DNA of 64,000 nucleotides from Blastocatellia bacterium (lineage in GTDB: Bacteria > Acidobacteriota > Blastocatellia > UBA7656): the NCBI GenBank assembly GCA_045807765.1, contig JBJMGU010000232.1, positions 1,618 through 65,617 of the forward strand, given 5' to 3'. Made by a program: the position numbers and the translations under genes. The notes under the pieces were generated by a model. It made no database searches. It was not told the DNA's origin and saw nothing but the letters and a program-made list of their open reading frames with translations. Positions 10,381-44,472 of the stretch are shown one piece after another; position 1 is the stretch's first letter; the number at the start of each line of letters is the position of its first letter.

Positions 10381-10452
10381 AGTGCTGAGTGATGCGTGAT
10401 GAGTGACGAGTAAGAGCCGCCTACTCATTACTCTCATTCATCACGCATCACT
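10381..10452. repeat. Junction element J1: inverted arms of tandem 7-mers (AGTGATG type)
   Basis: AGTGATGCGTGATGA (10388-10402) is the exact reverse complement of TCATCACGCATCACT (10438-10452). Overlaps the stop at 10448. Confidence 0.85.
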
Positions 10453-10993
10453 GGAAAAGTGGCTGGCCGGGCGGTTGCCCCTCGCCGAAGCCATTGATCG
10501 CTTGATAGCGATTATCAAAGGCGCGGTCGGCCTCGTCTATCGCCGCGGCGACTTCCGTGGCCGCCGCCTTCAAGCCGGCGGCGGTGCCTGCCTGCGCTTG
10601 CAGGTTCGCAATCTTCGCCTCAATCTTTTCGGCATGCTCGACGAGCGCCAGATCGAAACGATAAATGGCGTCGAGCTGCGGCTGCTCGATCTTCTGAATA
10701 TCGAAGAAGCCGGCATAGCCATAGGTTGCAAATCGTATACGGTTTTCGAGCTTGTCGAGTTTCTTGATGGCCGAATCCACTGGCGTGACTTCAAATAGCC
10801 GCCCGCCATTGGTCAACTCGCGCATCACTTCGGTGAGCGGTTCTTTGGCGCGGCGCAGGCGGTCGGCCAGTTGCTCGCGGTGGCGCTTGTCAAAGTCGCG
10901 GCGGGTTTCGCGGTCAACATAACCGCTGTAGCCGGGAATTTTGCTGGTTAGCCGCTCAAGCCAGTTGCGCTGGTCGCTCTGGTTCGCACTCAT
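10448..10993 (-). CDS. Conserved-looking hypothetical helical protein
   Basis: MSANQSDQRNWLERL...IPGYSGY...R..DK..RE. Start after GGGAGG. Co-oriented with the SPFH gene. Confidence 0.7.
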   Translation of the reverse strand: MSANQSDQRNWLERLTSKIPGYSGYVDRETRRDFDKRHREQLADRLRRAKEPLTEVMRELTNGGRLFEVTPVDSAIKKLDKLENRIRFATYGYAGFFDIQKIEQPQLDAIYRFDLALVEHAEKIEAKIANLQAQAGTAAGLKAAATEVAAAIDEADRAFDNRYQAINGFGEGQPPGQPLFQ

Positions 10994-11089
10994 TAGCAGT
11001 TTCCTCCCTAAGTAAAAATCGCCGCCTCTGACGCCGCGCACAGCGTCGGGCTGACACGCGGCAGAAAAAACTCGTGCCGTCGCCGACAC

Positions 11090-11608
11090 TCACGCGGGCG
11101 CGGGCTGGCCGGCGTGTGAGTCGGCGAGTCGCTTCAAGTACTCGTCATATAGGCGCCGGTCTGCCGCCGGCATCTCGCGGATGTAGAGGCCGACGACCCA
11201 GAAGATGCCCTCGGCTTCGGGCCTGTACCATGCGGCAAAGCCGGTCAGCCGCACCGTGCCGTTCGGCAGATCAACTTCGACTTCGAGCTTGTTCTTAAAC
11301 GCCACCGTATGATCGCGGATGATGTGCAACTGGCCGGTCTCGATTGTGCCGGTCTGAAGACGCATGCCCTGTTGCCCGGCATCAAGTACGCGGCCTTCGA
11401 TGACCCGCGAGCGGTGCCCTTCGTCGCTTTGATCGATGATCGTCATGCGCATGGGCAGAGGCTCGGGCGGCGGCGGAATCTTGCGGCGGCTCTTGTTCTC
11501 TTCAAGGTCGCTGGTGCTCTGCACCGAGCGAATCAGCCGCTCGCCATGCGCCGGGCAGAAGCTAATCTCATCGGGGTACAAGCGTCTACAAGTGGGGCAT
11601 TCTTTCAT
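11090..11608 (-). CDS. Zinc-ribbon plus PilZ-like domain protein
   Basis: N-terminal CPTC...FCPAHG, VLDAGQQGMRL resembling the PilZ DxSxxG strand, AAW...VGLYI. GGAGG SD present. Confidence 0.55.
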   Translation of the reverse strand: MKECPTCRRLYPDEISFCPAHGERLIRSVQSTSDLEENKSRRKIPPPPEPLPMRMTIIDQSDEGHRSRVIEGRVLDAGQQGMRLQTGTIETGQLHIIRDHTVAFKNKLEVEVDLPNGTVRLTGFAAWYRPEAEGIFWVVGLYIREMPAADRRLYDEYLKRLADSHAGQPAPA

Positions 11609-11639
11609 GGCGTCCTCCGCGAGGCGAACTGATTATACA

Positions 11640-11762
11640 AGGGGCTAGGGACTAGGGGCTAGGGGCTAGGGAGGGATTAAAGCCGAAAGTCTGCGGCTAA
11701 GAGCAATCAAACGGATGACGACAAATCCAACCTTCTCTTCCCTAGCCCCTAGTCCCTAGTCC

Positions 11763-11765
<3 letters not shown>
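11640..11765. repeat. Junction element J2: inverted arms of tandem GGGGCTA/GGGACTA
   Basis: Left arm 11640-11672 (AGGGGCTAGGGACTAGGGGCTAGGGGCTAGGGA), right arm 11739-11765 (TCCCTAGCCCCTAGTCCCTAGTCCCTA), which contains the carboxylase stop codon. Confidence 0.9.
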
Positions 11766-13343
<1,578 letters not shown>

Positions 13344-13473
13344 CGGTGTTCCTCGAATCCTTGTGGGCGGTGGCGCCGGAAGATCGGTTGAATTCAGAAG
13401 TGACAGTCTAGCAAAGCCGCCGCGCCGCGGGAAACTCGAACAATCGAAATGAGTTTACGGCTCGCGGGGTTTC

Positions 13474-13502
13474 TTGACACTCGGCGGCGACCTACTTATA
13501 AT
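13474..13502 (+). promoter_or_regulatory. Consensus sigma70 promoter of the HU gene
   Basis: TTGACA (13474-13479), 17 nt spacer, TATAAT (13497-13502). Confidence 0.85.
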
Positions 13503-13562
13503 GAGCCCGCTTCTCAAGCTCGCTCAAGGTTGTTCAATCGCAGCATACAAACGGAGGGTAAT

Positions 13563-13826
13563 GTGATTAAGCTGGACATTGTGAATCAAGTCGCCGACAA
13601 GACCGGTGTACCCAAGACCAAAGCGGAGGTTGCCGTCGAGTCGCTATTTGAAGCGATGAAGAACGCCTTGCAGCGCGGCGAGCGCATCGAGCTGCGCGGC
13701 TTCGGCGTTTTCGTCGTCAAACCGCGCAAGCGCGGCGTTGGCCGCAACCCGCGCACGGGCGAAGTCACCGACATCCCGCCCGGCAAGACCATCCGCTTCA
13801 AGCCCGGCAAAGAATTACAAGCTTAG
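13563..13826 (+). CDS. hup: HU/IHF family DNA-binding protein
   Basis: GTG start after GGAGG. IELRGFGVF...GRNPRTG...RFKPGKEL. Confidence 0.9.
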   Translation: MIKLDIVNQVADKTGVPKTKAEVAVESLFEAMKNALQRGERIELRGFGVFVVKPRKRGVGRNPRTGEVTDIPPGKTIRFKPGKELQA

Positions 13827-13828: not shown

Positions 13829-13908
13829 GTCAGTTGCCAGTTGCCAGTCGCCAGTTGTTGGTTATTGCTACTTCATCATTCAGGGAAAACTGATAACTGG
13901 CAACTGAC
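13829..13908. repeat. Junction element J3: inverted arms of tandem CAGTTGC
   Basis: GTCAGTTGCCAGTTGCCAGTCGCCAGTT ... AACTGATAACTGGCAACTGAC, beginning 2 nt after the hup stop. Confidence 0.85.
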
Positions 13909-13953
13909 CCCTGCTGTTGACATCCCGCCGCTCCGCAGATGTATCCTTGAAGG

Positions 13954-14970: not shown

Positions 14971-15000
14971 GCGCGCCAGCCGGCACGCCTGGAGAGAAGA

Positions 15001-16648: not shown

Positions 16649-17548
16649 CTACCAGCTATCGCTGGCGCCGCCGCCGCCGAAATCACCGCCGCCGCCGAAG
16701 CCGCCAAAGCCGCCGCCGCCACCGCCATCACTGCCGCCCCAACTGCCGCCGCTCGAACCGCCCCAGCCGCCACCGCCAAAGCCGCCGCCGCGCCCACCGA
16801 AGATCAGCGGCAAGATCAGCCAGCCCAGACCGCTGCGACGACGGTAACCCCCTCCGGGGCCGCCGCGCCCGCCGCGCCCAAGCGCATTAACAATGACGAG
16901 AAAGATGAAAACGATCACGATGATTATCACCGGCGAGATGCCGCCGCGGCTGCGTTGCGGGCGGCGCGTCGGAGCGCGATAGGCTTGCGTCGCGTCGATG
17001 CCTTCCATCGAGATGCCGAGCTTTTCGGCAAGCGTCGCCAGGATCGTCTGGGTGCCCACGGTCAGCGCCTGGTCGAAGTTGCCTTGCAGGAAATCCAAAC
17101 GCATCTTGCGAATGATCTCGCCCGACAGCCCATCGGGAACGTCACCTTCAAGATGGCGGCTGACTTCTAACCGCGTGCCGCCGTGATAGAGGCTGTCGGC
17201 ATAGCCGCCGGTGTTCGGCTCTTTGATGGCGACCAGCAACAACAGGGCGCGCTTTTGCGCATCACCGCCGACGCCCCACTTGCGTGCCAGTTGCAGGCTG
17301 TAATCTTCAATCGGGTAGCCCTGCATATCATCAAAGCGCATGGTGACGACGGCAATTTCGACACCGCTGTGGGCGCGAAAGTTTTCGAGCAGGCTTTCAA
17401 GCTGCTGGCGCTTGTCGGCGCTCAGCTTGCCGGCAAAGTCATTGACCATGCCCGTGTAGGCGGGCAACTGCGGCTGCGCCAGTGCCACCGCCGCTAAAGC
17501 AAGAAGGAGGCTGAGACAAAGAAATGTTTTCTTGAGTGCTACGATCAT
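16649..17548 (-). CDS. TPM domain protein (YgcG-like) with Gly-rich tail
   Basis: Signal peptide, VNDFAGKLS, EIAVVT, IEDYS...WGVG, TM helix, GGFGGFGGGGDFGGGGASDSW. Start chosen at MIVALKK. Confidence 0.88.
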   Translation of the reverse strand: MIVALKKTFLCLSLLLALAAVALAQPQLPAYTGMVNDFAGKLSADKRQQLESLLENFRAHSGVEIAVVTMRFDDMQGYPIEDYSLQLARKWGVGGDAQKRALLLLVAIKEPNTGGYADSLYHGGTRLEVSRHLEGDVPDGLSGEIIRKMRLDFLQGNFDQALTVGTQTILATLAEKLGISMEGIDATQAYRAPTRRPQRSRGGISPVIIIVIVFIFLVIVNALGRGGRGGPGGGYRRRSGLGWLILPLIFGGRGGGFGGGGWGGSSGGSWGGSDGGGGGGFGGFGGGGDFGGGGASDSW

Positions 17549-17743
17549 TACATGCAATCCTCGCCGCGCTCTATATTCATCGCGGCCTGTCAGCCCGATG
17601 ATCAACGGTTCGACGCGGCTTGACGACTGCGGCAGGCTCCCTCTGACGGTTTCGCTCATACGCTTTACATGATAGCTGACGCGCCGGGGAAAACGAATGA
17701 AGATAGCTCTAGTTGAAGCGCCGCCAGTCGCCCAACTATCGGC

Positions 17744-20823: not shown

Positions 20824-20910
20824 GGTGATGAGTGTCGGATGTTAGGTGTTGGGTTCCGGTAACCACTCAACATCTAACACCCAATACCCGATACCCATCA
20901 CCCAACACCT
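20824..20910. repeat. Junction element J4 (ftsL/ftsI): inverted arms of degenerate GGTGTTG/GGTGATG 7-mers
   Basis: GGTGATG AGTGTCG GATGTTA GGTGTTG ... CAACATC TAACACC CAATACC CGATACC CATCACC CAACACC. Confidence 0.8.
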
Positions 20911-24556: not shown

Positions 24557-26020
24557 ATGAAACTTAGCGACGTAGCAAAGCGACTCGGCGCGGCGGTTCG
24601 CGAATCACTCGGCGAGCGCGAGCCGCTCGGCTACTCGATTGATTCGCGCACGATTCGCGCCGGCGATGTCTACTTTGCCATTCGCGGCGAGCGCCATGAC
24701 GGTCATCAGTTCGTCACCGATGTCTTGAGCCGGGGCGCGATTGCCGCAGTCGTGTCGTGTGAGTTTCAATCCGCGCAAGCTGACCGCCTGCGCCGCGATG
24801 CAGCGATGCTGATCGGCGTAGACGATACGCTCGCGGCCTTGCAGCAGCTTGCTTCTTCGGTGCTGACTGATTGGCACGGGCAAGAGGTCGCCGTCACCGG
24901 CAGCATGGGCAAGACGACGACGAAAGAGATGACGGCGGCGGCGCTCGGCGCTGCCGGTCGCGTCATCAAGACGACCGGCAACCTGAACAACGACTATGGC
25001 CTGCCGCTGTCAATTTTGAAGATGGAGAGCGACGGCGCGCACACCACCGATTTTGATTACGCGGTCTTTGAGATGGGCATGAATCACAAAGGCGAGATCG
25101 CCCGGCTCGCCGAGATTGCTCCGCCTGATTGCGGCGTCGTTACGGTGGTCGCGCCGGTTCACCTTGAGTTCTTTGATTCGGTGGACGGCATCGCCGAGGC
25201 GAAAGCTGAACTGGTCGCGGGCATCAAGACGGGCGGCATCGCCGTGCTTAACGCCGACGATCCGCGCATCGCTCGCATGCGCGAAGGGCGTGATGACATT
25301 GCTTATCGAATGTTCGGCATCGAAAGCCGAGCCGACATCACGGCGCGCGACATTGAATCCGACGGCTTGAGCGGCACGCGCTTTCGTCTGCTGACGCCGC
25401 GCGGCGAAACCGCGGTCAGGCTGGTGGTCGCGGGCCGCCACAATGTTTATAACGCACTCGCCGCCGCAGCGGTCGCCGATTACTATAACGCGCCGCTTGC
25501 GGGCATCGCCGAAGCGCTCGGTCAATCCGCCTCGCCACGGATGCGCGGCGAAGTCGTGCGATTAACCAATGGCGTCACGCTCGTAGACGATTCGTACAAC
25601 TCGAATCCGCGCGCCTTGATTGAGATGGTCAAGACCGTCAGCGCCAAGCGCGAGGTTGAGCGCCGTGTTGTGGTCGCCGGTGAAATGCTCGAACTGGGTG
25701 AGAGCGGCGCGGCGCTGCACCGTGAAGCGGGCCGGCAGATCGCCGGGCTCGGCATCGATCTATTGATCGGCGTGCGCGGGCTGGCGGCAGAGATCATCGA
25801 AGGCGCACGCGAAGCCGGCATGTCGGCTGATGCAACGATCTTTTGTGCGACGCCCGAAGAAGCGGCTGAAGTCTTGCAGCGCCAGGCGCGCAGCGGCGAT
25901 CTCGTTCTCGTCAAAGGCTCGCGCGGCGTGAAGACCGAGATTGTTGTCGAGCGAATGAAGCAGTGGTCAGTTGCCAGTAATCAGTTGCCAGTTGCCAGTC
26001 GCTCTCTGCAACAGAAATAA
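24557..26020 (+). CDS. murF: UDP-MurNAc-pentapeptide ligase
   Basis: SIDSRTI, TGSMGKTTTKE, EMGMNH, DDSYNSNP, VKGSRG. The last ~19 aa derive from repeat J5. Confidence 0.95.
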   Translation: MKLSDVAKRLGAAVRESLGEREPLGYSIDSRTIRAGDVYFAIRGERHDGHQFVTDVLSRGAIAAVVSCEFQSAQADRLRRDAAMLIGVDDTLAALQQLASSVLTDWHGQEVAVTGSMGKTTTKEMTAAALGAAGRVIKTTGNLNNDYGLPLSILKMESDGAHTTDFDYAVFEMGMNHKGEIARLAEIAPPDCGVVTVVAPVHLEFFDSVDGIAEAKAELVAGIKTGGIAVLNADDPRIARMREGRDDIAYRMFGIESRADITARDIESDGLSGTRFRLLTPRGETAVRLVVAGRHNVYNALAAAAVADYYNAPLAGIAEALGQSASPRMRGEVVRLTNGVTLVDDSYNSNPRALIEMVKTVSAKREVERRVVVAGEMLELGESGAALHREAGRQIAGLGIDLLIGVRGLAAEIIEGAREAGMSADATIFCATPEEAAEVLQRQARSGDLVLVKGSRGVKTEIVVERMKQWSVASNQLPVASRSLQQK

Positions 26021-26076
26021 CTACGCATCAGGCAACCGATAACCGATAACTGGTCACTGGCAACTGGCAACTGACC
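25961..26076. repeat. Junction element J5 (murF/mraY): inverted arms of tandem CAGTTGC
   Basis: GGTCAGTTGCCAGT (25965-25978) pairs with ACTGGCAACTGACC (26063-26076). About six units per arm. The left arm lies inside the murF ORF. Confidence 0.9.
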
Positions 26077-27193: not shown

Positions 27194-27197
27194 AAGC

Positions 27198-27266
27198 AGG
27201 GGCCAGGGGTCAGGGGACAGGGGGCGGTTTTTCCGCCCCGGCCCCCGCCCCCGGCCCCCGACCCCT
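27198..27266. repeat. Junction element J6 (mraY/murD): inverted arms of tandem AGGGGYC
   Basis: TGA-AAGC-AGGGGCCAGGGGTCAGGGGACAGGGGGCGG-TTTTT-CCGCCCCGGCCCCCGCCCCCGGCCCCCGACCCCT-ATG. Confidence 0.85.
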
Positions 27267-28691
27267 ATGAACGTTGCCGGTAAAAACATTCTGGTGGTGG
27301 GCATCGCGCGCAGCGGCGTGGCGGCAGCGCGCTTGCTCGCGGCGCGCGGCGCAAACGTCACGGCGAACGATGTGAAAGACGAATCGCACCTGGCACACGA
27401 AGCCGATGAGTTGCGCGCCGCGGGCGTAAGACTCGCGCTCGGCGGCCATCCCAAATCGTTGTTTACGCAGGTTGATTTAATTGTGCTCAGTCCCGGTGTG
27501 CCCGCCGATTTGCCGGCGCTTGAAATCGCGCGAGGCAGTGGCGTTGAAATCATCAGCGAGCCGGAGCTTGCAGGCCGCTTCCTGCGCGGGCGCATGATCG
27601 GCATTACCGGCTCGAACGGCAAGACGACGACGACGGCGCTCACCGGCGAATTGATGAAAGCGGCGGGCGCCGAGGTCATCGTCGGCGGCAACATCGGCAC
27701 GCCGCTCACGAGCTTGATTGAACAATCGAATGACCAGACGTGGGCAGTGGCCGAGCTGTCGAGCTTTCAGCTTGAGATGATTGACAGCCTGCGGGTTCAC
27801 GTCGCCGTCGTGACCAACATCACGCCGGATCATCTGGATCGGCACGGCACGTTTGAAAACTATGTCCGCGCCAAGCACCGCATCTTTCGCAATCAAACGG
27901 CTGACGACTTCGCGGTGCTGAACGGTCACGATCAAGCGATTGACGAAATGGTGAGCCAGCACGGCGTGCCGTCACGCAAGGTCTGTTTCAGCTCGCGGGG
28001 GCCGCAAACGATGGCCGGCGGCGCAGCAGATATCTATGTGCGCGAAGGCTGCGTGTTCACGAGGCTGGTGGCCGACCGGCAAAGCGAAGTCGAGATTATG
28101 CCGCTTGCCGATATTCCATTGCGCGGCATGCACAACGTCGAAAACGTCATGACGGCGCTGGCCGCGGTGTTCTGTGCGATGCAGACTCGGCTGGCCGATC
28201 TGCCGGTGCTGATCGCGGCGGTCAAGCAGTTTCCCGGCGTCGAACATCGCATCGAGTACGTCGCCGAGATTGACGGCATCAAGTTTTATAACGACTCGAA
28301 GGCGACGAATGTCGACTCGACCGTTAAAGCTCTGGAAGCGTTCGAGCGTAACGTCATCGTGATCCTCGGCGGCAAAGACAAAGGCAGCGATTACACGACG
28401 CTCGCGCCGCTCGTTAGCCGTCGCGTCAAGCAAGTCGTGTTGCTTGGTGCCGCAAGCGACAAGATCGCCGCGCAGCTCGAAGGCGTGCGCCCCATGACGC
28501 GCGCCGCTTCGATGCAAGATGCGGTTCAGCAATCCATGCAGGCGGCAGAGGCAGGCGACACCGTGTTGCTCGCTCCCGCCTGCGCCAGCTTCGATATGTT
28601 CGACAACTACGAACATCGAGGCCGCGTCTTTAAGCAGGAAGTGATGAATCTTGCCAGCCGCTCAGAAGCGGCGGCGCAAAGGAAAGAGTGA
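27267..28691 (+). CDS. murD: UDP-MurNAc-L-Ala--D-Glu ligase
   Basis: SPGVP, GSNGKTTT, ELSSFQL, DHLDRH, NDSKATN, PACASFDMF. Confidence 0.96.
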   Translation: MNVAGKNILVVGIARSGVAAARLLAARGANVTANDVKDESHLAHEADELRAAGVRLALGGHPKSLFTQVDLIVLSPGVPADLPALEIARGSGVEIISEPELAGRFLRGRMIGITGSNGKTTTTALTGELMKAAGAEVIVGGNIGTPLTSLIEQSNDQTWAVAELSSFQLEMIDSLRVHVAVVTNITPDHLDRHGTFENYVRAKHRIFRNQTADDFAVLNGHDQAIDEMVSQHGVPSRKVCFSSRGPQTMAGGAADIYVREGCVFTRLVADRQSEVEIMPLADIPLRGMHNVENVMTALAAVFCAMQTRLADLPVLIAAVKQFPGVEHRIEYVAEIDGIKFYNDSKATNVDSTVKALEAFERNVIVILGGKDKGSDYTTLAPLVSRRVKQVVLLGAASDKIAAQLEGVRPMTRAASMQDAVQQSMQAAEAGDTVLLAPACASFDMFDNYEHRGRVFKQEVMNLASRSEAAAQRKE

Positions 28692-28752
28692 GCGACAAGC
28701 GATAAGTGATAGGTCAGCCCAGCTTATCACTCATCACTGGTCACTCGTCACT
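28687..28752. repeat. Junction element J7 (murD/ftsW): inverted arms of AGTGATA/AGTGACC type 7-mers
   Basis: AGCGACA AGCGATA AGTGATA ... TATCACT CATCACT GGTCACT CGTCACT. Confidence 0.8.
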
Positions 28753-28757
28753 GAGTT

Positions 28758-29937: not shown

Positions 29938-30053
29938 GCCAGGAGTCAGGAGTCAGAAGTCAGGAGTCAGAATGGAAGGCAAAGTCTCTACTCTTGAACA
30001 GACACTTATAAACGGACTTTATTCTGACTTCTGACTCCTGGCTTCTGACTCCT
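29938..30053. repeat. Junction element J8 (ftsW/murG): inverted arms of tandem GGAGTCA/GAAGTCA
   Basis: 33-nt arms 29941-29973 and 30021-30053 pair with 4 deviations, 3 of them G-U wobbles. ATG follows immediately. Confidence 0.93.
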
Positions 30054-31166
30054 ATGAGAGTAATCATCGCAGCCGGCGGCACCGGCGGGCACATCTATCC
30101 GGGCGTGGCGATTGCCCGAGAGTTTAAGCGGCGCGACGCGGCAACCGATATTCTTTTCGTCGGCACACCGCGTGGCCTGGAATCGAAGATCGTGCCGCGC
30201 GAAGGCTTTCAGCTTGAGATGATTCAGGTCGGCGCGCTCAAAGGCGTTTCGCTCTTTGCCAAAACCAAATCGCTCGCCGGCTTGCCCTTGAGCTTTGTCG
30301 CGGCGCTCGGCATACTGCGACGTTTCAAGCCGGACGTGGTCATCGGTGTCGGCGGCTATTCGTCAGGGCCGACGTTGTTGATGGCGGCGCTCAAGCGCAT
30401 TCCGACGATGATCGTCGAGCCGAACGCGATGCCGGGTTTTACGAACCGCGTGCTGGCGCGCTTTGTCGGCGCAGCCGCCTTGACCTTTGAAGACGCGCTT
30501 AAGTATTTCGGCAAGCGCGGCGTCGTGACCGGCAACCCTGTGCGCGGCGATTTTGCCGGCATTCAGAAGAAAACGCGCGGCGCGCGCTTGCATGTTCTCG
30601 TCTTCGGCGGCAGCCAGGGGGCGCACGCCATCAACGTGGCGATGACCGAAGCGGCGGGCTTGCTCACGGCGCAAAAGGAACGGATGGCTATCGTCCATCA
30701 GACGGGTGAGAAGGATTACAAAATGGTCGAGCGCGCTTACAACGAAGCGGGATTGACGGAGGCAGAAGTGAAGCCGTTCATTCACGACATGGCGGCGCGC
30801 TTTCGGTGGGCGGACGTGTTGATTTGCCGGAGCGGCGCAACCACCGTGGCCGAAGTCGCGGCGGCGGGCAAAGCGGCGATCTTCGTCCCCTTCCCTTTCG
30901 CCACCGACGATCATCAACGCAAGAACGCCGAAGCGTTCGAGCGCGTCGGCGCCGCCCGCATGATTTTGCAGAAGGACCTGACGCCGGCGCGGCTCGCCGA
31001 GGCGTTACAGCAGTTGCTTGATAACCCCGGCGCGCTTGATCAGATGGAAGCGGCCAGCCGCCAGCTTGGGCGGCCCGATTCCGCAGCGCGCGCCGTGGAT
31101 TTAGCAATGAAGGTGGCCAGCGGCAGGAAGCAGGAAGCAGGAAGCAGGAAGCAGGAAGCAGAATGA
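30054..31166 (+). CDS. murG: Lipid II GlcNAc transferase
   Basis: GGTGGHIYP, GGYSS, TGNPVR, GGSQGA, RSGATT, DHQRKNA. C-terminal GRKQEAGSRKQEAE is repeat-derived. Confidence 0.96.
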   Translation: MRVIIAAGGTGGHIYPGVAIAREFKRRDAATDILFVGTPRGLESKIVPREGFQLEMIQVGALKGVSLFAKTKSLAGLPLSFVAALGILRRFKPDVVIGVGGYSSGPTLLMAALKRIPTMIVEPNAMPGFTNRVLARFVGAAALTFEDALKYFGKRGVVTGNPVRGDFAGIQKKTRGARLHVLVFGGSQGAHAINVAMTEAAGLLTAQKERMAIVHQTGEKDYKMVERAYNEAGLTEAEVKPFIHDMAARFRWADVLICRSGATTVAEVAAAGKAAIFVPFPFATDDHQRKNAEAFERVGAARMILQKDLTPARLAEALQQLLDNPGALDQMEAASRQLGRPDSAARAVDLAMKVASGRKQEAGSRKQEAE

Positions 31167-31237
31167 AAGCGGGAAGCCAAGCGAGTGCGCTTATCGCGCC
31201 TCCGTTTTTATTCTGACTTCTGACTCCTGACTTCTGA
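31123..31237. repeat. Junction element J9 (murG/murC): chimeric arms, (GCAGGAA)5 left and (TTCTGAC/TCCTGAC)n right
   Basis: Left arm 31123-31164 lies inside murG, right arm 31210-31237. Only the inner CAGAATGAA/TTTATTCTG ends pair well. Confidence 0.85.
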
Positions 31238-32628: not shown

Positions 32629-32629
32629 T

Positions 32630-32694
32630 AGGAAGCAGGAAGCAGGAGGCAGGACTGTCTACGCAGTAAACTGGCTCCTGGCTCCTGCCTCCTG
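32630..32694. repeat. Junction element J10 (murC/ftsQ): inverted arms of AGGAAGC/AGGAGGC
   Basis: AGGAAGCAGGAAGCAGGAGGCAGGA ... CTGGCTCCTGGCTCCTGCCTCCTG. Confidence 0.85.
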
Positions 32695-32710: not shown

Positions 32711-33730
32711 TTGGCAACAGCTCAACGGAGTGAGCCCAGAGGGCGCGCACAGGTCGTCGCGCCGCGTGCGCCGCGTCGGTTACAGCAGTCGCGCTCGCGC
32801 GGCAGCAGCGTGCGACTCGGCGAGCGATTGAAATCGGCAGCGGTGCTGGTCAAGCCGGCTGTGGTTTTAATCACCATCGCGCTGTTGATCGTCGGTTATA
32901 ACGCGCTGGCCGGCTCACGGCTCTTTGATCTGCATTATATCAATGTCAGCCAGGCCAGCCCGGCTTTGCAGACCGAGATCGAGCAAGCGGTGAAGCGCGC
33001 CGTCGGCCAGACGAAACTGCTCGATGTCAATCTGGCGGTATTGAAGGAGAAGATTGAAAAGCTGCCGCAGGTGCGCACGGCCACGGTGGCGCGATTGCTG
33101 CCCGATGGCCTCTCCGTGCAGATCGTTGAGCGCCACCCGGCGGTGCTGGTGCGACGGCAATCCGTCTCGCAGGAAGAAAAGCTTGTTTGGCTTGATGAAG
33201 ACGCGGTGGAGATGGGCGAGTTCGCCGCCGTCAACGCCAGCGCTCAGACCGGCGAGATGCGCGAAGTGCCGCCCATCGCTAAGGGCTTTGAAGACGGCAA
33301 CCGCTCGCAGGCGGCGGTCAATGCCGACCGCGAGCGCATCGCGGTCTACAAGAAGTTAGAGAGTGAGCTGGGCGACGGCGCCTCGTCGCTGTGGAATTTG
33401 ATTGACGAGATCGATCTGCGCGACGTCAAGGACGTAAACCTGAGCCTCGCCCGCCCGCACGTTCTGATTCACGTCGGCAGCACAGACTTTCGCAAGCGCT
33501 TCGAAATGGCGCTGACGATCATTCAGGCGGCCAAGAGCGGCGACGCCGAAGCCTTGCGCCGTATGCGGACGCCTGAGCAGAGAATTGAACAATTGATCCA
33601 GAACGCCAACAATTTCAGCTTCATTGACACGGCGCGCTCGGATCGTATCGTTGTAAACTTCGCCTCCCCCGGCGTAACCCAGGCCCCGGTGCAGCAGGAA
33701 ACTAAACCGACACAGGGCAAGAAGAAGTGA
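32711..33730 (+). CDS. ftsQ: Cell division protein FtsQ/DivIB
   Basis: TTG start after GGGAGG, TM helix, POTRA-like LPQVRTATVARLLPDGLSVQIVER, IDLR. Position before ftsA. Confidence 0.85.
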   Translation: MATAQRSEPRGRAQVVAPRAPRRLQQSRSRGSSVRLGERLKSAAVLVKPAVVLITIALLIVGYNALAGSRLFDLHYINVSQASPALQTEIEQAVKRAVGQTKLLDVNLAVLKEKIEKLPQVRTATVARLLPDGLSVQIVERHPAVLVRRQSVSQEEKLVWLDEDAVEMGEFAAVNASAQTGEMREVPPIAKGFEDGNRSQAAVNADRERIAVYKKLESELGDGASSLWNLIDEIDLRDVKDVNLSLARPHVLIHVGSTDFRKRFEMALTIIQAAKSGDAEALRRMRTPEQRIEQLIQNANNFSFIDTARSDRIVVNFASPGVTQAPVQQETKPTQGKKK

Positions 33731-33822
33731 TAAGTGATGAGTGATGAGTGATGATTGATGAGACAGTACAGCAGTCACACGCTTGCTTTTTACTCATTAC
33801 TCATCACTCGCCACTCATCACT
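33726..33822. repeat. Junction element J11 (ftsQ/ftsA): inverted arms of tandem AGTGATG
   Basis: AGTGATA AGTGATG AGTGATG AGTGATG ATTGATG ... CATTACT CATCACT CGCCACT CATCACT. The first unit contains the ftsQ stop. Confidence 0.9.
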
Positions 33823-39272: not shown

Positions 39273-42200
39273 TCACCGCAATCTGGTCGCCGGGTCGCCG
39301 AGCAGAATGAAGGTACGCCGCGCGTCAAGGCTGCGCACTGCGCCTTTGGCCTGGAGTGCCGCGTCGCCGACTGTCAGACCATTGCCTTGATCGAGCAGGC
39401 GGCGGAACATCTCCAGGTCCATGAGCGACTCGGTGCCCGACTCGCTCATGCCTGTCGAAGCCCACACGGCGATGGCTCCGCCTTTCGCCCGCAACAACGA
39501 CTCGCCGAGACTCTCGTCGGTCGGGTCTTGGAAGTAGCCATTCAAGCAAGTCATCATCACGAACAATGACAGATTGCCGCCGTTTGCGAGCTGTGCCGCG
39601 TCGGCAGAGGTCAACAGGTTGCCGCGCCAGAAGCCGGCGTTGCCGTGACCGTAGTAGTTGACGATGCGCGGGCCGCGGTTGAGCGCGTCGAGCAGACGAC
39701 CTTTCGCAGCCATGGCGTCCAGATTGCCGCGATTGATCTGTTCGACCGACTGGCCGGGCTGAATCACGCCGCGCAGCTCGTTGCTCGCGACTTCGAAGCT
39801 GACGCCTTCGCTATCGTCGTCCGAAACCAGCAGCACGCCTTCGGGCCGCGCTGCCTGCTCGTAAGCGATGATCTTTGCGACTAGAGCAGCGGCTTCTGTA
39901 GCCGTACGCACCGGCAGCCTTCCGACCGCCATCGCCGCCAGCCCTTCACTGCCCATCTCCGCATACCAGTCATCACTCGCCGTCTCCATCAAGCTCGTAT
40001 CCACTAGCTTCGTCGGCACCACGTCGGCTTCGCCCAGCCCCAGGTAATTCTTCGGGTCATAGCTGGCGTCGCCTCCTATCACCACATAGCGCGGCACCGT
40101 CTGCCAGTTCCCTGCCGCATAACTGAGAAAGTCTTTGATCGCCTGCGGCGTCTTCTGTCCATAGCTGAATTCGTCGTAGAGGTCTTCGACATCAACGAGA
40201 GCGACTTTGTAGCCCTGGCGCTCGCGCCACGCCTTCAGCGACGCAAACGCGCGCTCCATATCTCCTCGCGTGATGATGACGTAGTCAGCCGCCTGACCTT
40301 TCTGCCGCCAGTTCGATGCCTGATTGAGCTTGACGCTCACCAGTCGGCGGGCGCTGTCGTCGGCCATTGCCAGAAGCTGTCGCGACCCGCCCTTCGTGGG
40401 AGTCACCGACACGCTGTAGCCTGACTTGGTCTTCTTGACCGTGCCGACCAGTTCGCGCGCCGTGTTTGGATTTGTAACATCAAATACACGAACGTTCGAG
40501 GTGGTGAAACCATCAACGCTCACCGCCTGCCTGGCTGCTGCCGTGAAGCGCAGTTCATTGTTATCGGCAACCAGCGCATGCCAGTAGTTGATGCGCAGGT
40601 AATCGATCAAGGTAATATCGGACGGGCCGCCGAGCGGCACCAGGCGCACGGTGTTCGCGCCTTCTTTCAGTAGCGACTGCGCCACATTGAAACGGGCGCG
40701 TCCGGCATTCTGTTCGCTGAAGACAATTTCGCCGACACGTTGATCGTTCAGTTGCACTTCGATGCGGTGACCGACCAGCGTCATGCCCTGCAAGCCGACT
40801 TCGAGCTGTGCCTCGGCATTGGCCTCGGCGACGTGTCGCAAGGTGAGCAATTGCGCCGGCAACGTGTTGGTGATGATCGGCCCGAAGAAATTGTCGTTAT
40901 CGCCATTGCGCAGGCTGGCGAAGTAGAGGCTGCGCGGTTTGGATTCGACGCTGTCGAAGAAGCTGCCGCCCTTGCTCGGGCTGGCGGGCGCGACCGTTTG
41001 CCGCATGCGCAGACCGGGCTCCGAGCCGTTGACCAGCCAGTAAACATGCTCGGCGGTGACGGCGGACGCCATGCCGACGCCATAGAACTCGATAGCCGGC
41101 GAGCCCGCAGATGAGCCGGCAGTGACGTTGATCGGCACCTGCTCGCCGTCAACATAGAGTTGCAGGTTGCGCGCCTCTGCGCTTGCATCGAAGCCGGCAG
41201 CAGCCAGTTCCGAAAGCGCAACGCGGTAGAAGCCTTCGCCGGTGATGGCGAGCTTTGCCGCCGGTTGACCGGCAAGGCTGCTCTGCACGGTGATGTCTGA
41301 GGGGCTGACGCTCTTGAGCGCCGCACGGCGCTCAACGCGCGTCGTCTGCGCTTCGGTCATGTTGAGCTGGCCAACGTCGCCAAGCGCCGGCGACGCTGCC
41401 ATTGTCGTCACCTTGCCCGGCGCGCGGCCCACGGCAATTGGCCCTTGCCAGGTACTCTGACCGTTCAGATCAATGGCTTCGACCCAGTAGGACGAGCCGT
41501 TAGCAGCAGCGTCAAAACAATTGTACGAGCGGCCCGCGCCGAGCGCCGTCGTCGGCCCGACCATCAGCGCCGAGCCGGCAATCAGTTGCGAGTTGACGCG
41601 CGTCCGCTTGCCGCCCTCTTCGCGGTAGACGTTGAAGCCCAGGTTCTCAACTTCATAACCGGTCTGCCAGCGCACCAGCGCGCCGTCGTTGTAGCGCGTG
41701 GCGCGGGCGGCGCTCGCCGGGTCGTTGTCGAAGCGCGCAGCGGTTGGCGAAGAAACGAAGACCGACAGCAGATAATCGCCCGCGCCAATTGCGTTAGCTG
41801 AGTTGATGCCGATTGAAACGCGTGCGTAGTAAGTGCCGCTCGTCCGCACGCGATAGACCAGCCCTTCAGCGGGCGAGTTCGGCGTCTGCGAAGTGAGCGA
41901 GCCGGCTCCCGATGTCGTGCTTGAAGTCGAGCTGCCGTCATTGACCGCCACCAACACGTTGGTGCCGCTGCTGTCGAGCAATTCGAGCTTGCCGTCTATC
42001 GGCGTGTTGTCGCGCGCCGGATCGCAATCAAGGCTCAGGAAGATCAGCGTGCCCGCCGACGCGGTGAACGAATAATAGTCTACGTCGGTCGAGGGCGCAG
42101 GGCCGCTCAAGGTGCCGCTGAAATAATTATTGGCAGCCGAATCGGCGTTAGCGGCGTCGTTGTTCGGCTCGGACTCGGCGGTCGCCTGTGCGCTCGGCGG

Positions 42201-43952
42201 CTGCACGACGGCATAGAGCCGGTAAGGCTCGAAGGCGCCGGTCGCCGAGAAATGGCTGACGCGCAGGTAGGTCGCCGTGCCGGTCGTCGGTGTGCCGGCG
42301 ACGTTGGGCGCTAGCTGGCCGAATGGCGTGTCATTATCGAAGTCATCGAATTCGAGCGTGTCGGTAGCGGTCGTAACCCGCATGTCGTAATCGATTGAGT
42401 TGCTGGCGACCGCGTCAATCAGGGCAAAGACACGCGAGTTGGCCGCCGGGGTGCCCAGCGAGAAGAAGTCTATGTCACCAGCCGCATTGATCGCGCCTTC
42501 GATGCCAAAGACTGCCGGGTTGGCGGTCGCCGGCGTGTTGTTGGCCTCGGCCTCTTTCGTGCAGCGCGTCGCTTCGATAGTGAAGGTGCTGCCCTCGGTC
42601 AGGCTGTTCTCGTCAACGAATAGATAAATCTGTTGCCCATTGGTCAGCGACAGGCAGGCGATCTCTTCGGAAGAAGAAGATGAGTCACGATTAGCCGCCG
42701 CCAGACAAGTGCTGACGGTGATTGGCGCCGTGCCCGCCGGGCAACTGCTCGCGGCGTAAAGCACCAGGTTGGCGTCGGTGCTGTAGTTGGTCACTCTGAA
42801 GGAGTAGGTGTCTGCCGATGGCGCAGTAAAGGAATAGACCACGTCGCGGCCCACCGCCGTGGACGCCGTCTGCCCGATGCCTGTAAAACAGGCCGAGCCG
42901 GAAAGTTGATAATCGTTCGAGGCGGCAACCGTCGTCCCGTCAACCGGCGTAAACAGGGATAGCGCCGTGGCGCCGGCGCAGGTGTCATTCGATTGAGCCA
43001 GCACACGCGAGACGCGCAGTTGAACCGCGGTCTGGCCGGCTACTGGCGGCGCGGTGTTGTATTCCCAGACCACGACGTAGTAAGTCGTGCCAGCGTTGAG
43101 CTGCGTGGTGATGACCGATTGCAGCGCGCCGGTGACACATCCGTCATCGTCGCAGCCGTCGAAACCACCGCCGCTCGGCACTTCGGTGAACGGGCCGGCA
43201 CAAGCGCCCGTCGAGGTGTAGATCGCCATCACCGTGTCGTCCACGGTCGTAGCGGTCGGCCCGTCCGAACAGCTCGCAATCGTGTAGATTCCCGAGGTGG
43301 TCGGCGCGAAGGTATACCAGATCGACCGCGACACATTGTTTTGACATGAAGGCAGCGGCGGATCGCTGACCGTCGTCGCATCGGTGATGTCTGCCGTGGT
43401 GCTGGTCAAGTAGGGAAACGGCCCACCGGCGGGGATGACTTCGGCGCCGGCGCACTGATCGTTGGGCGGCGCGGCTTGTGGAGTGCGCGGCGCGGCAGCG
43501 GCAGCAGCGGCAATGCGCTGATTCAGCAATTGTTTCTTCAGATCGAGAACGTCGGTCGAATGACGCGCGACGGTTTGCGTGTAGCGGCTCAAGAGGTCGG
43601 ACTGCTCGCGCGTTAATTGCGCTGCCTGAACGTAATGCGCGTAGAGCGCCCGCGAGATCAACACGTCAGCCTCAAGCTCGGTGAGCGATTGGCCGGAACT
43701 GTAGCGGCGCAGCAGGCTAGCTTCTTCTTCTGAGACCGCGCCGCCGGCTTTCCACTGCGCCAGCAGTTTGTCGAGCGCCGCCTGACGTTCCCCGTCGAGC
43801 GCGGCGACTCTGTTTTGCGCCGCGCCGATAGGCGAACGGCCACCGCTTGCCTGACCCGATTGCAGGTTGGGCAGCGCCAACCAGAGGCTCACGCCTGCCA
43901 GCATCAGCAAGAGACTGATGCTATACCGCACGTGCTTGGATGAAGCCTTCAT
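39273..43952 (-). CDS. Secreted C25-family (gingipain-like) protein A, with PPC-like/NDxC repeat cargo
   Basis: Signal peptide, PPNDQC/SNDTC and E-x-E-x-NN repeats. C-terminal module with NYYGHG, MTCLNGYF, LLGDP. Confidence 0.8.
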   Translation of the reverse strand: MKASSKHVRYSISLLLMLAGVSLWLALPNLQSGQASGGRSPIGAAQNRVAALDGERQAALDKLLAQWKAGGAVSEEEASLLRRYSSGQSLTELEADVLISRALYAHYVQAAQLTREQSDLLSRYTQTVARHSTDVLDLKKQLLNQRIAAAAAAAPRTPQAAPPNDQCAGAEVIPAGGPFPYLTSTTADITDATTVSDPPLPSCQNNVSRSIWYTFAPTTSGIYTIASCSDGPTATTVDDTVMAIYTSTGACAGPFTEVPSGGGFDGCDDDGCVTGALQSVITTQLNAGTTYYVVVWEYNTAPPVAGQTAVQLRVSRVLAQSNDTCAGATALSLFTPVDGTTVAASNDYQLSGSACFTGIGQTASTAVGRDVVYSFTAPSADTYSFRVTNYSTDANLVLYAASSCPAGTAPITVSTCLAAANRDSSSSSEEIACLSLTNGQQIYLFVDENSLTEGSTFTIEATRCTKEAEANNTPATANPAVFGIEGAINAAGDIDFFSLGTPAANSRVFALIDAVASNSIDYDMRVTTATDTLEFDDFDNDTPFGQLAPNVAGTPTTGTATYLRVSHFSATGAFEPYRLYAVVQPPSAQATAESEPNNDAANADSAANNYFSGTLSGPAPSTDVDYYSFTASAGTLIFLSLDCDPARDNTPIDGKLELLDSSGTNVLVAVNDGSSTSSTTSGAGSLTSQTPNSPAEGLVYRVRTSGTYYARVSIGINSANAIGAGDYLLSVFVSSPTAARFDNDPASAARATRYNDGALVRWQTGYEVENLGFNVYREEGGKRTRVNSQLIAGSALMVGPTTALGAGRSYNCFDAAANGSSYWVEAIDLNGQSTWQGPIAVGRAPGKVTTMAASPALGDVGQLNMTEAQTTRVERRAALKSVSPSDITVQSSLAGQPAAKLAITGEGFYRVALSELAAAGFDASAEARNLQLYVDGEQVPINVTAGSSAGSPAIEFYGVGMASAVTAEHVYWLVNGSEPGLRMRQTVAPASPSKGGSFFDSVESKPRSLYFASLRNGDNDNFFGPIITNTLPAQLLTLRHVAEANAEAQLEVGLQGMTLVGHRIEVQLNDQRVGEIVFSEQNAGRARFNVAQSLLKEGANTVRLVPLGGPSDITLIDYLRINYWHALVADNNELRFTAAARQAVSVDGFTTSNVRVFDVTNPNTARELVGTVKKTKSGYSVSVTPTKGGSRQLLAMADDSARRLVSVKLNQASNWRQKGQAADYVIITRGDMERAFASLKAWRERQGYKVALVDVEDLYDEFSYGQKTPQAIKDFLSYAAGNWQTVPRYVVIGGDASYDPKNYLGLGEADVVPTKLVDTSLMETASDDWYAEMGSEGLAAMAVGRLPVRTATEAAALVAKIIAYEQAARPEGVLLVSDDDSEGVSFEVASNELRGVIQPGQSVEQINRGNLDAMAAKGRLLDALNRGPRIVNYYGHGNAGFWRGNLLTSADAAQLANGGNLSLFVMMTCLNGYFQDPTDESLGESLLRAKGGAIAVWASTGMSESGTESLMDLEMFRRLLDQGNGLTVGDAALQAKGAVRSLDARRTFILLGDPATRLR
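39859..40280. repeat. 422-bp near-identical direct repeat, copy 1 (inside the C25 domain of protein A)
   Basis: Aligns without gaps to 45057-45478 with about 11 mismatches by manual count. Confidence 0.9.
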
Positions 43953-44272
43953 AATTAAATCTCCTGTATTACATCCTTCAATGATTACCGACTGCCGGGT
44001 GAACTGCCACGGGATCGCAGCGTTGCAAACGCGATGACCTGGATCAGCAACATGGAGTTGCCGCGCGCCTTCACCATATCAAGCATGCGCACATCGCCTC
44101 TTGCGGTGGCGCTGAGTATTGGGACAAACGGGCAAACGATCTCAGTCGCAGTCAGGGTGGAGGCGGCCCATGCCCCGACCGCTTGCGTCCTTATCGTTTT
44201 GCTGCTCTTCTGCGTTGAGGACAAGACGGAACTCGAAAACTTATGACAGAAAACTCTCGCCGAATCGTCGCT

Positions 44273-44302
44273 ATCGTATCGAGTATCACAACGGCAAGTC
44301 AA
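44273..44302 (-). promoter_or_regulatory. Putative promoter of C25 protein A
   Basis: TTGACT, 18 nt, TACGAT on the minus strand. Confidence 0.45.
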
Positions 44303-44321
44303 GTCGGCACGGCGGCTGTGT

Positions 44322-44472
44322 GACACGGCGACGCGGGGACGCGGGGACACGGCGACGCGGCGAAAGAAAGTGATGCCAGGGCAGCGCCGCCTTCTCTTGT
44401 TGCGATCAATCATTGGCGGCGCGGCAGCGCGCGGGAATCTCCCATCGCCGCGTCACCGTGTCCCCGCGTCGC
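44322..44472. repeat. Junction element J12: inverted arms of tandem 8-mers GACGCGGG/GACACGGC
   Basis: Five units at 44322-44363, complementary arm 44445-44472, which begins 4 nt after the stop of C25 protein B. Confidence 0.9.

Follow-up and report, generated by a model that had tools for sequence, protein, structure and literature searches.

The IVSs found in the 23S rRNA of Coxiella, Leptospira and Salmonella resemble the elements reported here: their ends are inverted repeats pairing into a stem of at least about 28 bp, heptamers (GACAGAT in Coxiella) are repeated in tandem within the terminal region, and the loop may or may not contain an S23p ORF (accessible part of PMC4990558). In the same text, the Coxiella IVS is placed in helix 45 with a 28-bp terminal stem, the tandem GACAGAT heptamers and an S23p ORF, and is described as being excised by RNase III. 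One other paper lists S23p as a function of CRISPR-cas loci, with one gene lying between cmr3 and cmr2 (PMC3936711).

A second group of similar sequences comprises the GGGAATC repeats of Xanthomonas and the GGGGA(C/T)T repeats of Nostoc. These are also tandem heptamers, with about 4 units preferred, that adjoin or overlap the stop of the 5' ORF, lie mostly between genes of the same direction and vary in sequence at conserved sites; in Xanthomonas 70-75 inverted 'convergent' pairs are counted per genome (accessible part of PMC4692102). The words '23S' and 'intervening' do not occur in the accessible main text of that paper. The TAACTGA repeats of Beggiatoaceae, Cyanobacteria and Bacteroidetes are likewise intergenic tandem heptamers, in 2-6 copies near gene boundaries, and a post-transcriptional role was suggested for them (accessible part of PMC4679880). 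In our search of the freely accessible literature and its main texts, S23p or IVSs were nowhere linked to intergenic inverted heptamer arrays, and no description of such elements in Acidobacteria was found. The STRR sequences of heterocystous cyanobacteria are short tandem heptamers abundant in intergenic DNA, and neither a paired inverted architecture nor pinning to stop codons is known to belong to their definition. Eukaryotic foldback transposons also have arms of short tandem repeats, and integron attC sites follow stop codons in same-direction gene arrays.

The window investigated here is a stretch of 64,000 nt from a 6.1-Mb Blastocatellia draft genome (280 contigs, 97% complete), in which genes were called with our own ORF and codon-score caller. 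The original prediction described 12 inverted tandem-heptamer elements (J1-J12, with 8-mers in J12), and 12 of 12 were confirmed at their positions. Each folded as one long RNA hairpin, with z-scores of -2.8 to -7.4 against 200 dinucleotide shuffles, and an equally good fold was obtained in 0 to 2 of the 200. All 12 had same-strand ORFs on both sides, and the 5' arm overlapped the upstream stop or began at most 6 nt after it, except that in J5 and J9 it lay in the last codons, as had been predicted.

J1 (10381..10452, AGTGATG-type arms, MFE -39.7, z -7.3) separates two genes of the minus strand; one arm contains the stop of the upstream one (10448-10450, minus strand), and the next start is at 10375. 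J2 (11640..11765, GGGGCTA/TAGGGAC arms, z -6.5) has an arm overlapped by the stop of the minus-strand gene 11763..13343. The arm of J3 (13831..13912, CAGTTGC arms, z -4.4) begins 4 nt past the TAG stop (13824-13826) of the plus-strand gene 13449..13826. At the far end, J12 (44322..44470, octamer GACGCGGN arms, z -7.3) ends 6 nt short of the codon (44477-44479, minus strand) that terminates gene 44477..48490.

The eight elements J4-J11 were situated in and flanking the essential dcw (cell-division) operon. J4 (20824..20909, GGTGTTG-type arms, z -5.0) begins 6 nt past the stop at 20815-20817 and ends 10 nt ahead of the ftsI start (20920). In J5 (25968..26074, CAGTTGC arms, z -6.6) the 5' arm is part of the final murF codons (stop 26018-26020), and the mraY start follows at 26087. 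J6 (27197..27266, CAGGGGN arms, z -2.8) fits exactly between mraY (stop 27191-27193) and murD (start 27267), filling their junction. In J7 (28690..28753, AGTGAGC/GATAAGT arms, z -3.4) the arm is overlapped by the murD stop (28689-28691), and ftsW starts 4 nt downstream, at 28758. J8 (29940..30053, CAGGAGT arms, z -6.6) extends from the ftsW stop (29934-29936) to the ATG of murG (30054). J9 (31123..31237, GCAGGAA 5' arm and imperfect TTCTGAC 3' arm, z -4.0) has its 5' arm in the last murG codons (stop 31164-31166), with the murC start at 31249. J10 (32630..32694, AGGAAGC arms, z -5.3) begins 1 nt past the murC stop (32626-32628), ftsQ being the next gene, and J11 (33726..33822, AGTGATG arms, z -7.4) overlaps the ftsQ stop (33728-33730) ahead of the ftsA start at 33850.

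The inverted-repeat stem of the 23S IVSs was thus present in J1-J12, whereas these elements lie between protein-coding genes in mRNA junctions and not in helix 25 or 45 of an rRNA, belong to a population of hundreds per genome and are pinned to stops. Their loops contain no ORF, and specifically no PF05635 (S23p, 23S-rRNA IVS protein) ORF; S23p-encoding loops were found in kin elements described below. Excision by RNase III, known for the IVSs (accessible part of PMC4990558), is putative for J1-J12. We consider it probable that J1-J12 are ORF-less members of a group of dispersed foldback elements of the same kind as the 23S-rRNA IVSs, residing in mRNA junctions as selfish DNA at stop codons.

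The comparison with other repeat classes revealed both likenesses and differences. Tandem heptamers are present as in STRRs, but STRRs belong to another phylum, the host here being a Blastocatellia acidobacterium, and the units here are different and many. With the REP/REPIN-RAYT system the elements have in common that they are hairpin repeats occurring extragenically by the hundreds without target duplications, and that one gene is flanked by inverted repeats. REPs are, however, defined by sequence, a separate REP/RAYT pair exists in this genome, and the heptamer arms flank PF05635 and not a Y1 transposase, so membership was not supported. MITEs are likewise small, non-autonomous and dispersed in families with terminal inverted repeats; here the inverted repeats were found without target-site duplication or a transposase-bearing parent, and the sole long-gap pair holds PF05635. 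As regards attC sites, the neighbours here are core dcw genes and the arms consist of tandem heptamers. The Xanthomonas and Nostoc repeats have one unit per genus, against 202 canonical units here, and were read as G-quadruplex elements (accessible part of PMC4692102). The TAACTGA repeats differ in being direct (169 sets direct, one indirect), in lying just upstream of starts and in having a single unit (accessible part of PMC4679880).

Across the genome, 7 was the top tandem period (1256 of 4971 TRF rows). Scanning for period-7 and period-8 arrays with a reverse-complement partner yielded 342 inverted heptamer pairs under a strict test, 0 direct pairs, and 53 period-8 inverted pairs constituting the family of J12. 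A sensitive detector gave 634 elements, equivalent to 1.1% of the genome; J9 was picked up by neither automatic detector. A genome simulated with a 5th-order Markov model contained 76 period-7 arrays and 0 inverted pairs, and we concluded that the inverted pairs are not due to chance. The G-rich arm was on the 5' side in 339 of the 342 pairs, with 1 opposite and 2 ties. Arms had a median of 4.3-4.4 tandem units, and stems a median of 35 aligned positions at 83% identity. The 202 canonical heptamer units were accompanied by 8-mer and 10-mer versions, the biggest unit family being GATGAAT with 158 arrays, which bears out the earlier proposal of a class defined by structure and not by sequence. 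An element would accordingly be described as two inverted arms of ~30 nt with ~4.4 tandem 7-nt units each (8 or 10 nt in minor families), around a loop that may hold a short unique sequence, a dispersed core sequence, a REP nested within it, or the gene of an S23p (PF05635) four-helix bundle. Unit sequences were also seen to drift inside arrays.

The strict pairs were distributed over 256 co-directional, 42 convergent and 28 divergent junctions. The suggestion that the elements occur at co-directional junctions only therefore holds in the window (12 of 12) but not genome-wide. By the sensitive count 467 of 3066 same-direction junctions (~1 in 7) were occupied. Clustering into operon hot spots was rejected, as 2 clusters of at least 5 were observed against 1.07 expected under random placement over junctions.

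The predicted pinning to stop codons was evident genome-wide. The distance from the in-frame stop to the 5' arm had a median of about 1-2 nt (interquartile range -3 to 5), irrespective of the unit sequence, and the frequency dropped sharply past ~12-15 nt; from the arm to the next start the median was 10 nt. In junctions with at least 60 nt free, 42 of 59 elements were at most 10 nt from the stop and 4 at most 10 nt from the start. Uniform placement would give 4.9 of 59 near the stop and attraction to any stop-like triplet 5.6 of 59, so a stop-like DNA triplet as the target was rejected. At convergent junctions the elements fill the space from stop to stop, and at divergent junctions they are unpinned. 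The arms as the source of the stop codon could be ruled out: stop and heptamer units were in phase only where the stop falls within the array (29 of 29 at d1 <= -4; 16 of 68, about chance, at d1 >= 0), and 78 elements with stop-free units were pinned equally. Slow pinning through erosion of spacer DNA was also rejected, because pinning was equal whether an element had a family core or a unique one. A terminating ribosome has a reach of ~12-15 nt from the stop. Our leading guess is a selective filter, in which the stems would be harmless only with the 5' arm within this reach.

Elements with spacers of at least 20 nt could be divided into two halves. In 154 of 306 the spacer belonged to one of 16 families with conserved cores (sizes 48, 36, 22, 13, 12 and smaller), and members of the families of 48, 36 and 22 copies had 20-60 nt of non-repetitive loop sequence in common; the other 152 spacers were unique. 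Core matches occurred in both orientations (962 plus, 937 minus). With about half of them carrying common dispersed cores, the elements behave like small mobile repeats. For the same reason the expectation that identity-based repeat finders would miss the class is only half right.

The occupation of orthologous junctions differed between relatives. The ftsW-murG junction has no element in relative L001, where the genes overlap as TGATG. In the window it holds the AGGAGTC element J8, with an orthologous one in L003, a GATTTTG element takes this place in L002, and L004/L005 have a GATGAAT element there; in every occupied genome the element is between stop and ATG. At the site of J6, the mraY-murD junction is an empty ATGA overlap in both L001 and L003. 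Among the 29 closest dcw loci, 20 had at least one pair, and the table of junction gaps was bimodal. On the preferred reading, the elements would be selfish repeats that spread within a genome and turn over between relatives, and that end up directly 3' of in-frame stops, in some cases precisely between the stop of one operon gene and the start of the next where the two had formerly overlapped.

The same placement could reflect operon punctuation that benefits the host, with the hairpins kept by selection as intercistronic signals and not as selfish DNA. Such signals might act through RNase III processing, through protection of the 3' end of the upstream cistron, or through joining of the stop and the next start at the stem base for translational coupling. 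Both ends are indeed tight in operons, given the short arm-to-start distance and the filling of the entire stop-to-start gap by J6 and J8, and orthologous dcw junctions are often occupied, but a single junction was found without an element in a close relative and with units of unrelated families in others. The frequency drop matches the reach of the terminating ribosome, yet elements also occur, unpinned, at divergent junctions, the core families are dispersed in either orientation and operon clustering is no stronger than random. In addition, stem mismatches of the sense transcript did not favour G:U (408 G:U-type versus 417 A:C-type, p = 0.78). These counts give no sign that the RNA stem is under selection in the sense transcript, and such selection was rejected. 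We regard host-beneficial punctuation as unlikely.

To return to the IVS-like foldback elements that we favour, the genome contains an RNase III gene, and the transcribed stems of 25-45 bp would probably be cut by RNase III like IVS stems. We infer this processing by analogy; such cuts would punctuate polycistronic mRNAs, for example the dcw transcript. In one soil metatranscriptome a 0.05 share of the sampled words was found, a value with no bearing on expression or habitat.

The original prediction stated that similar arms flank small genes of the four-helix-bundle/IVS type in other genomes and suggested looking for 'filled' versions enclosing a small ORF. Both were found. The genome has one PF05635 gene, and it lies inside the sole long-gap inverted heptamer pair. 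In 30 genomes of the same class, this one included and one gene per genome, 20 PF05635 genes were similarly flanked, L102 not being scored as flanked on account of an incomplete locus. In another phylum, the inverted repeats on either side of the gene exceeded the 95th percentile of 54 shifted-window controls for 27 of 29 PF05635 genes, and in 19 of these 27 the period was 7, 8 or 12. A further likeness to the 23S IVSs was detected in G026, a genome of the same family, in which an insert of ~100 nt with AGTTTTG/CAAAACT arms is present in both 23S genes. It is positioned in the loop of a hairpin at Rfam model positions 1206-1226, which we take to be helix 45 of 23S rRNA. The G041 row (wrong orientation) was left out of the 23S alignment, and no 23S gene is assembled in the present genome.

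The idea that the ORF-less elements are empty shells of a mobile cassette was not literally borne out. Neither blastn nor tblastn found S23p remnants in the ORF-less loops, and we rejected these loops as decayed S23p genes. The upstream arm as ribosome-binding site of S23p is unsupported as a rule, since the distance from arm to S23p start is variable, with a median of 30 nt, 10th and 90th percentiles of 5 and 125 nt and a maximum of 282 nt, and a separate GGAGG is present in many loops. We also compared S23p copy number with element density in 50-100-kb samples. Five genomes without a PF05635 match had 1.0, 0, 4.3, 4.1 and 0 elements per 100 kb, three with 12-22 matches had 5.0, 2.0 and 6.0, and the present genome (1 match) had 10.4; in these small samples of related genomes copy number showed no clear relation to density.

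Local origin without mobility, in which a heptamer is multiplied by polymerase slippage, one arm serves as template for the other through template switching and similar units are convergent, would account for the 152 unique spacers and for the unit drift within arrays, and an excess of heptamer repeats has been ascribed to slippage elsewhere (accessible part of PMC4692102). At the empty murD-ftsW site of L001 we also observed a sequence similar to the initial unit of J7, as such an origin might leave behind. Slippage cannot, however, make the common loop cores of 20-60 nt in the three largest families, and the PF05635 cargo across phyla and the uniform G-rich-5' polarity are left unexplained. 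We hold local origin to be quite improbable.

The means of spreading of the proposed foldback elements was approached through their flanks and the gene content. Stem ends were located in 225 elements, 150 of which, all co-directional and with 8 nt readable on either side, were usable for a target-duplication test. No target-site duplication above chance was detected in these 150; flanking direct repeats were absent in 98 and of 1, 2 and 3 nt in 32, 16 and 4, respectively. RVT_1 is absent from the 97%-complete draft, by which a reverse-transcriptase route was rejected. The repeat flanking the sole Y1_Tnp gene (G000:C210) is a palindrome of another kind, a REP, and no heptamer array is found at positions 14000-18000 of that contig; a RAYT as the mobiliser was rejected, as the REP differs from the heptamer arms. 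No transposase or reverse transcriptase linked to the elements was found in the genome, and mobility is thus deduced from their distribution only.

G-quadruplex or i-motif regulatory repeats, comparable to the Xanthomonas and Nostoc heptamers, would fit the G-runs of some families (TAGGGGC, CAGGGGN) and a G-rich polarity like that of the Xanthomonas 'convergent' pairs (accessible part of PMC4692102). GATGAAT, the largest family, as well as AGTGATG, CAGTTGC and AGTCAGG have no G-runs and yet the same anatomy and placement, which makes this explanation very improbable. A terminator scan called none of J4-J11 as a whole, with one weak match inside the J9 loop. That the elements are ordinary intrinsic terminators or attenuators is barely credible: hairpins do lie just past stops and fill convergent junctions, but no T-run follows the stems of J1-J12, in agreement with the predicted lack of a U-tract, eight elements inside the dcw operon separate genes whose counterparts overlap in relatives, and the real terminator of this operon, located past ftsZ (36618-36643), consists of a GC stem and T-run of the canonical type.

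Taken with the flanked PF05635 genes and the G026 insert, the IVS-like reading suggests that 23S IVSs and PF05635/S23p genes represent a single kind of foldback element, which has arms of tandem repeats and an optional S23p cargo. Three puzzles have so far been kept apart, namely the excess of intergenic tandem heptamers in some bacteria, the sporadic 23S IVSs and the widespread PF05635/S23p genes of unknown role; at least the last two would be joined in this way. A wider proposal, to which we give a rather small chance, is that inverted tandem-repeat arms, rRNA IVSs and orphan S23p/Avd-like genes belong together in a single class of mobile elements found across phyla, whose integration would be coupled to translation termination through recognition of a translated stop and not of a DNA motif, with a pentameric S23p reading the 4-5-unit lattice. 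The Xanthomonas and cyanobacterial heptamer arrays may be members of that class. If true, termination-coupled integration would amount to a way of targeting that is not known from other transposable elements.

The elements offer a system for asking how repeats find, or survive at, in-frame stops and whether RNase III cuts operon mRNAs at such inserts. For annotation, S23p genes within operons may represent inserts and not operon members. In a count by eye with crude neighbour ORFs, S23p pointed the same way as its neighbours in 9 of the 10 co-directional cases. The genome's own REPs were seen nested in the loops of 12 heptamer elements.

Paired period-7 arrays were detected with Tandem Repeats Finder at J1-J11 and a period-8 pair at J12. 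Inspection of the sequence shows that in each element a G-rich arm with 3-6 units is followed, after a spacer unrelated to it, by an arm of reverse-complement sequence. The twelve inverted tandem-repeat elements of the original prediction were thereby confirmed in the window, and the observation extends genome-wide. A single long RNA hairpin was predicted for each of J1-J12, with minimum free energies of -26 to -92 kcal/mol and z-scores of -2.8 to -7.4 against 200 dinucleotide shuffles per element, of which 0 to 2 folded equally well. The genes ftsI, murE, murF, mraY, murD, ftsW, murG, murC, ftsQ and ftsA (Pfam) span 20920-35085, and the ORF after ftsA (35452-36585) we take to be ftsZ. Eight elements (J4-J11) occupy the junctions of the ftsI-ftsA cluster, J4 lying directly upstream of ftsI; J1, J2, J3 and J12 have same-strand ORFs on both sides. 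Apart from J5 and J9, whose 5' arm forms the final codons of the upstream gene, each element has a 5' arm that overlaps the upstream stop or follows it by no more than 6 nt. None of J4-J11 as a whole was reported by the terminator scan, which gave one weak hit within the J9 loop. At the convergent junction 3' of ftsZ (36618-36643) there is an intrinsic terminator of canonical type, with an 11-bp GC-rich stem and a T-run, thus ordinary terminators exist in this organism beside the heptamer hairpins. A GCC-rich tandem repeat of 3, 15 and 24 nt at 16658-16796, within the minus-strand ORF 16649..17659, probably encodes a low-complexity Gly/Ala-rich stretch unrelated to the elements. Downstream of J12, within 39273-56925, the minus strand carries ORFs of 1559, 1337 and 2724 aa, all three very large.

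The draft genome holding the window (G000; 6,104,098 bp, 280 contigs, 60% G+C), whose closest FtsW relatives are Blastocatellia (Acidobacteriota) MAGs, was scanned for tandem arrays with a reverse-complement partner. Seven was the commonest tandem period (1256 of 4971 TRF rows), with 202 canonical units, most frequently GATGAAT-type (158), AGGGGCT (116), AGGCAGT (88), CTGACTT (79), CCCTAGT and CAGGAGT (76 each). After merging, 1034 period-7 arrays remained. Among 399 neighbouring pairs at most 300 nt apart, 342 were inverted with matching units (the strict set; median spacer 46 nt), none were direct and 57 were neither, while a simulated genome (5th-order Markov) gave 76 arrays and no inverted pairs. 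A sensitive detector, which accepted period-7, 8, 10 or 14 arrays whose reverse-complement partner outscored the 99th percentile obtained from the simulated genome, yielded 634 elements. These make up 1.1% of the genome and include 11 of the 12 window elements, J9 being missed. The detector also placed an element on the same contig shortly before window position 1 (G000:C232:218-303, which is -1400 to -1315 in window coordinates). Period-8 inverted pairs numbered 53, mainly of the J12 family, and periods 5, 6, 9, 11 and 12 gave 0-2 each. The 24 inverted pairs with 10-nt units may represent a third arm period of the class. Arms contain a median of 4.3-4.4 units, and stems align over a median of 35 positions with 83% identity. 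The G-rich arm was on the left of the plus strand in 339 of the 342 strict pairs (one opposite, two ties) and is thus 5' on either strand; a cruder measure on the sensitive set gave 556 left, 65 opposite and 13 ties. The largest run of elements (G000:C185:17616-37928) occupies 7 junctions among eight tandem same-strand ORFs of 800-839 aa.

Placement was analysed against 4617 genes covering 88.7% of the genome, called with an in-house ORF and codon-score caller. Strict pairs were found at co-directional junctions in 256 cases (3066 such junctions in the genome), at convergent ones in 42 (638) and at divergent ones in 28 (633), with 11 more at contig edges and 5 within called genes; the sensitive set gave 467, 74 and 46. 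Restriction to co-directional junctions, as originally predicted, is therefore a property of the window and not of the class. Elements were depleted at divergent junctions (Fisher p = 5e-4), and no clear depletion was seen at convergent ones (p = 0.15). The predicted pinning to stop codons, on the other hand, generalises genome-wide. At co-directional junctions the median distance from stop to 5' arm was 1 nt (IQR -3..5), with 97 elements at 0-6 nt, 84 at -10..-1 and 27 at 7-15; just 21 were further than 15 nt away. At junctions with 60 nt or more to spare, the stop was no further than 10 nt from 42 of the 59 elements and the next start no further than 10 nt from 4, compared with 4.9 expected near the stop under uniform placement. 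A DNA motif as target was rejected, since 5.6 would be expected with all stop-like triplets, on both strands, equally likely to be targeted. The arms themselves are not the source of the stops either, as 78 elements with stop-triplet-free units showed equal distances (median 2). Pinning was equal in elements with family cores and with unique spacers. At convergent junctions the element mostly runs from stop to stop, and at divergent junctions elements are unpinned.

The elements are dispersed in families and turn over at fixed sites. Among the 306 spacers no shorter than 20 nt, 154 belong to 16 families (48, 36, 22, 13, 12, then smaller) whose members have non-repetitive cores in common, and matches to these cores are found on either strand (962 plus, 937 minus). 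Junction gaps in the dcw loci of relatives show a bimodal distribution, with one class of about -4 to 25 nt and another of about 50 to 140 nt. The ftsW-murG junction exists in four states across the window and relatives L001-L005: a TGATG stop/start overlap without an element in L001, the same AGGAGTC element in the window and L003, a GATTTTG element in L002 and a GATGAAT element in L004 and L005, the insert always lying between stop and ATG. At mraY-murD, J6 in the window corresponds to an ATGA overlap in L001 and L003. Of the 29 closest dcw loci, 20 contain inverted heptamer pairs, as does 1 of the 20 loci from other phyla. In L002 (5875-6040) mraY is followed by a CGTGGTG-armed element and ftsW, with murD absent from its usual place, which could reflect a deletion between two elements, relocation or misassembly. 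No flanking direct repeats above chance were found at the stems, and no transposase-sized cargo among the G000 elements. A separate classical REP/RAYT system (G000:C210:15400-16200) comprises the sole Y1_Tnp gene with a palindrome of ~26 nt (CCCCGTAGGGGCGAAATGTTTATAGT-like) on both sides; copies of this REP also lie inside the loops of heptamer elements, 12 in all (spacer cluster 5).

The predicted filled versions enclosing a small ORF do exist. When unpaired arrays were examined, only one inverted pair genome-wide had a gap of 300-3000 nt (contig G000:C10, TAGGGGG/CCCTAGC, gap 403), and it encloses the genome's sole PF05635 (S23p) gene (129.7 bits; 121 aa, residues ...SIPSNIAEG...). The pair lies at a convergent junction, one arm 4 nt past a stop and the other overlapping the other stop. 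PF05635 matches were found in 46 of 61 genomes of the class, with a maximum of 22 per genome. In 30 loci, one per genome and including that of G000, the gene was directly flanked by inverted heptamer arrays in 20; the G-rich arm was left in 19 of 21, a script tally that includes the artefact L102. Filled elements share the niche of ORF-less ones, abutting stops, and the S23p gene was co-oriented with its neighbours in 9 of 10 co-directional cases (counted by eye). Eight PF05635 genes in three MAGs of other phyla had clear flanking inverted arrays (period 7-10) in 4 cases, weaker ones in 3 and none in 1. In the phylum of locus L062 (93 genomes sampled; 30 loci, one per genome, 29 testable), 27 of 29 genes were flanked by an inverted repeat that exceeded the 95th percentile of 54 shifted-window controls, clearly periodic in 19 of the 27 (12 with period 7, 6 with period 8 and 1 with period 12). 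The link to four-helix-bundle/IVS-type genes, suggested in the original prediction, was thus borne out, and S23p is the only recurrent cargo of the elements. That S23p is a required factor is counted against by the single copy in G000 despite its highest element density, by the lack of any S23p remnant in ORF-less loops (blastn, tblastn), and by the occurrence of some elements in sampled genomes without a PF05635 match.

In the same-family genome G026 both 23S genes hold an insert of ~100 nt with arms of AGTTTTG x4.6 and its complement. This insert lies between the conserved CACCGAAGC and GGUAGGGGAGC, within the loop of a hairpin (Rfam model positions 1206-1226) that by its position we take to be helix 45. 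A second pair, TGAGGGA/TCATCCC, lies ~350 nt upstream of 23S in the spacer or leader of both rRNA operons (L113:1071-1156, L116:1074-1159). PMC4990558 describes the Coxiella helix-45 IVS as a selfish element whose terminal stem measures 28 bp; its 5' end carries the GACAGAT heptamer three times in tandem, it contains an S23p ORF, and RNase III excises it. The foldback architecture is common to the heptamer elements and the IVS. They fit best into the IVS foldback class, as a new form that resides at mRNA junctions, mostly lacks an ORF and has an affinity for stop codons.

Like the G000 elements, the Xanthomonas GGGAATC repeats, in passages of PMC4692102, prefer ~4 units, form inverted pairs, lie near stops and vary at conserved sites; they are interpreted there as G-quadruplex elements, and '23S' and 'intervening' do not occur in the main text. 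The Beggiatoa TAACTGA repeats, unlike those of G000, are described in PMC4679880 as direct and upstream of starts. In the full text searched, which covered main articles largely from outside the subscription journals, no literature was found joining S23p/IVS with intergenic inverted heptamer arrays or describing such elements in Acidobacteria. PF05635 genes are reported inside cas operons, e.g. between cmr3 and cmr2 (PMC3936711), where subtraction of the coordinates gives 86 and 6 nt to the neighbours; this gene looks as an insert of the heptamer-element kind would.

The stems may act as substrates of RNase III, which is encoded in G000. For the placement at in-frame stops we favour a selective filter, under which a long stem would be harmful where no translation takes place. 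A terminating ribosome covers roughly 12-15 nt, and a stem with its 5' arm inside this stretch would be tolerated, which fits the steep drop in element counts beyond ~15 nt from the stop. Integration targeting coupled to translation termination is a possible alternative. Stem mismatches on the sense strand were as often A:C (417) as G:U (408), which counts against strong RNA-level selection.
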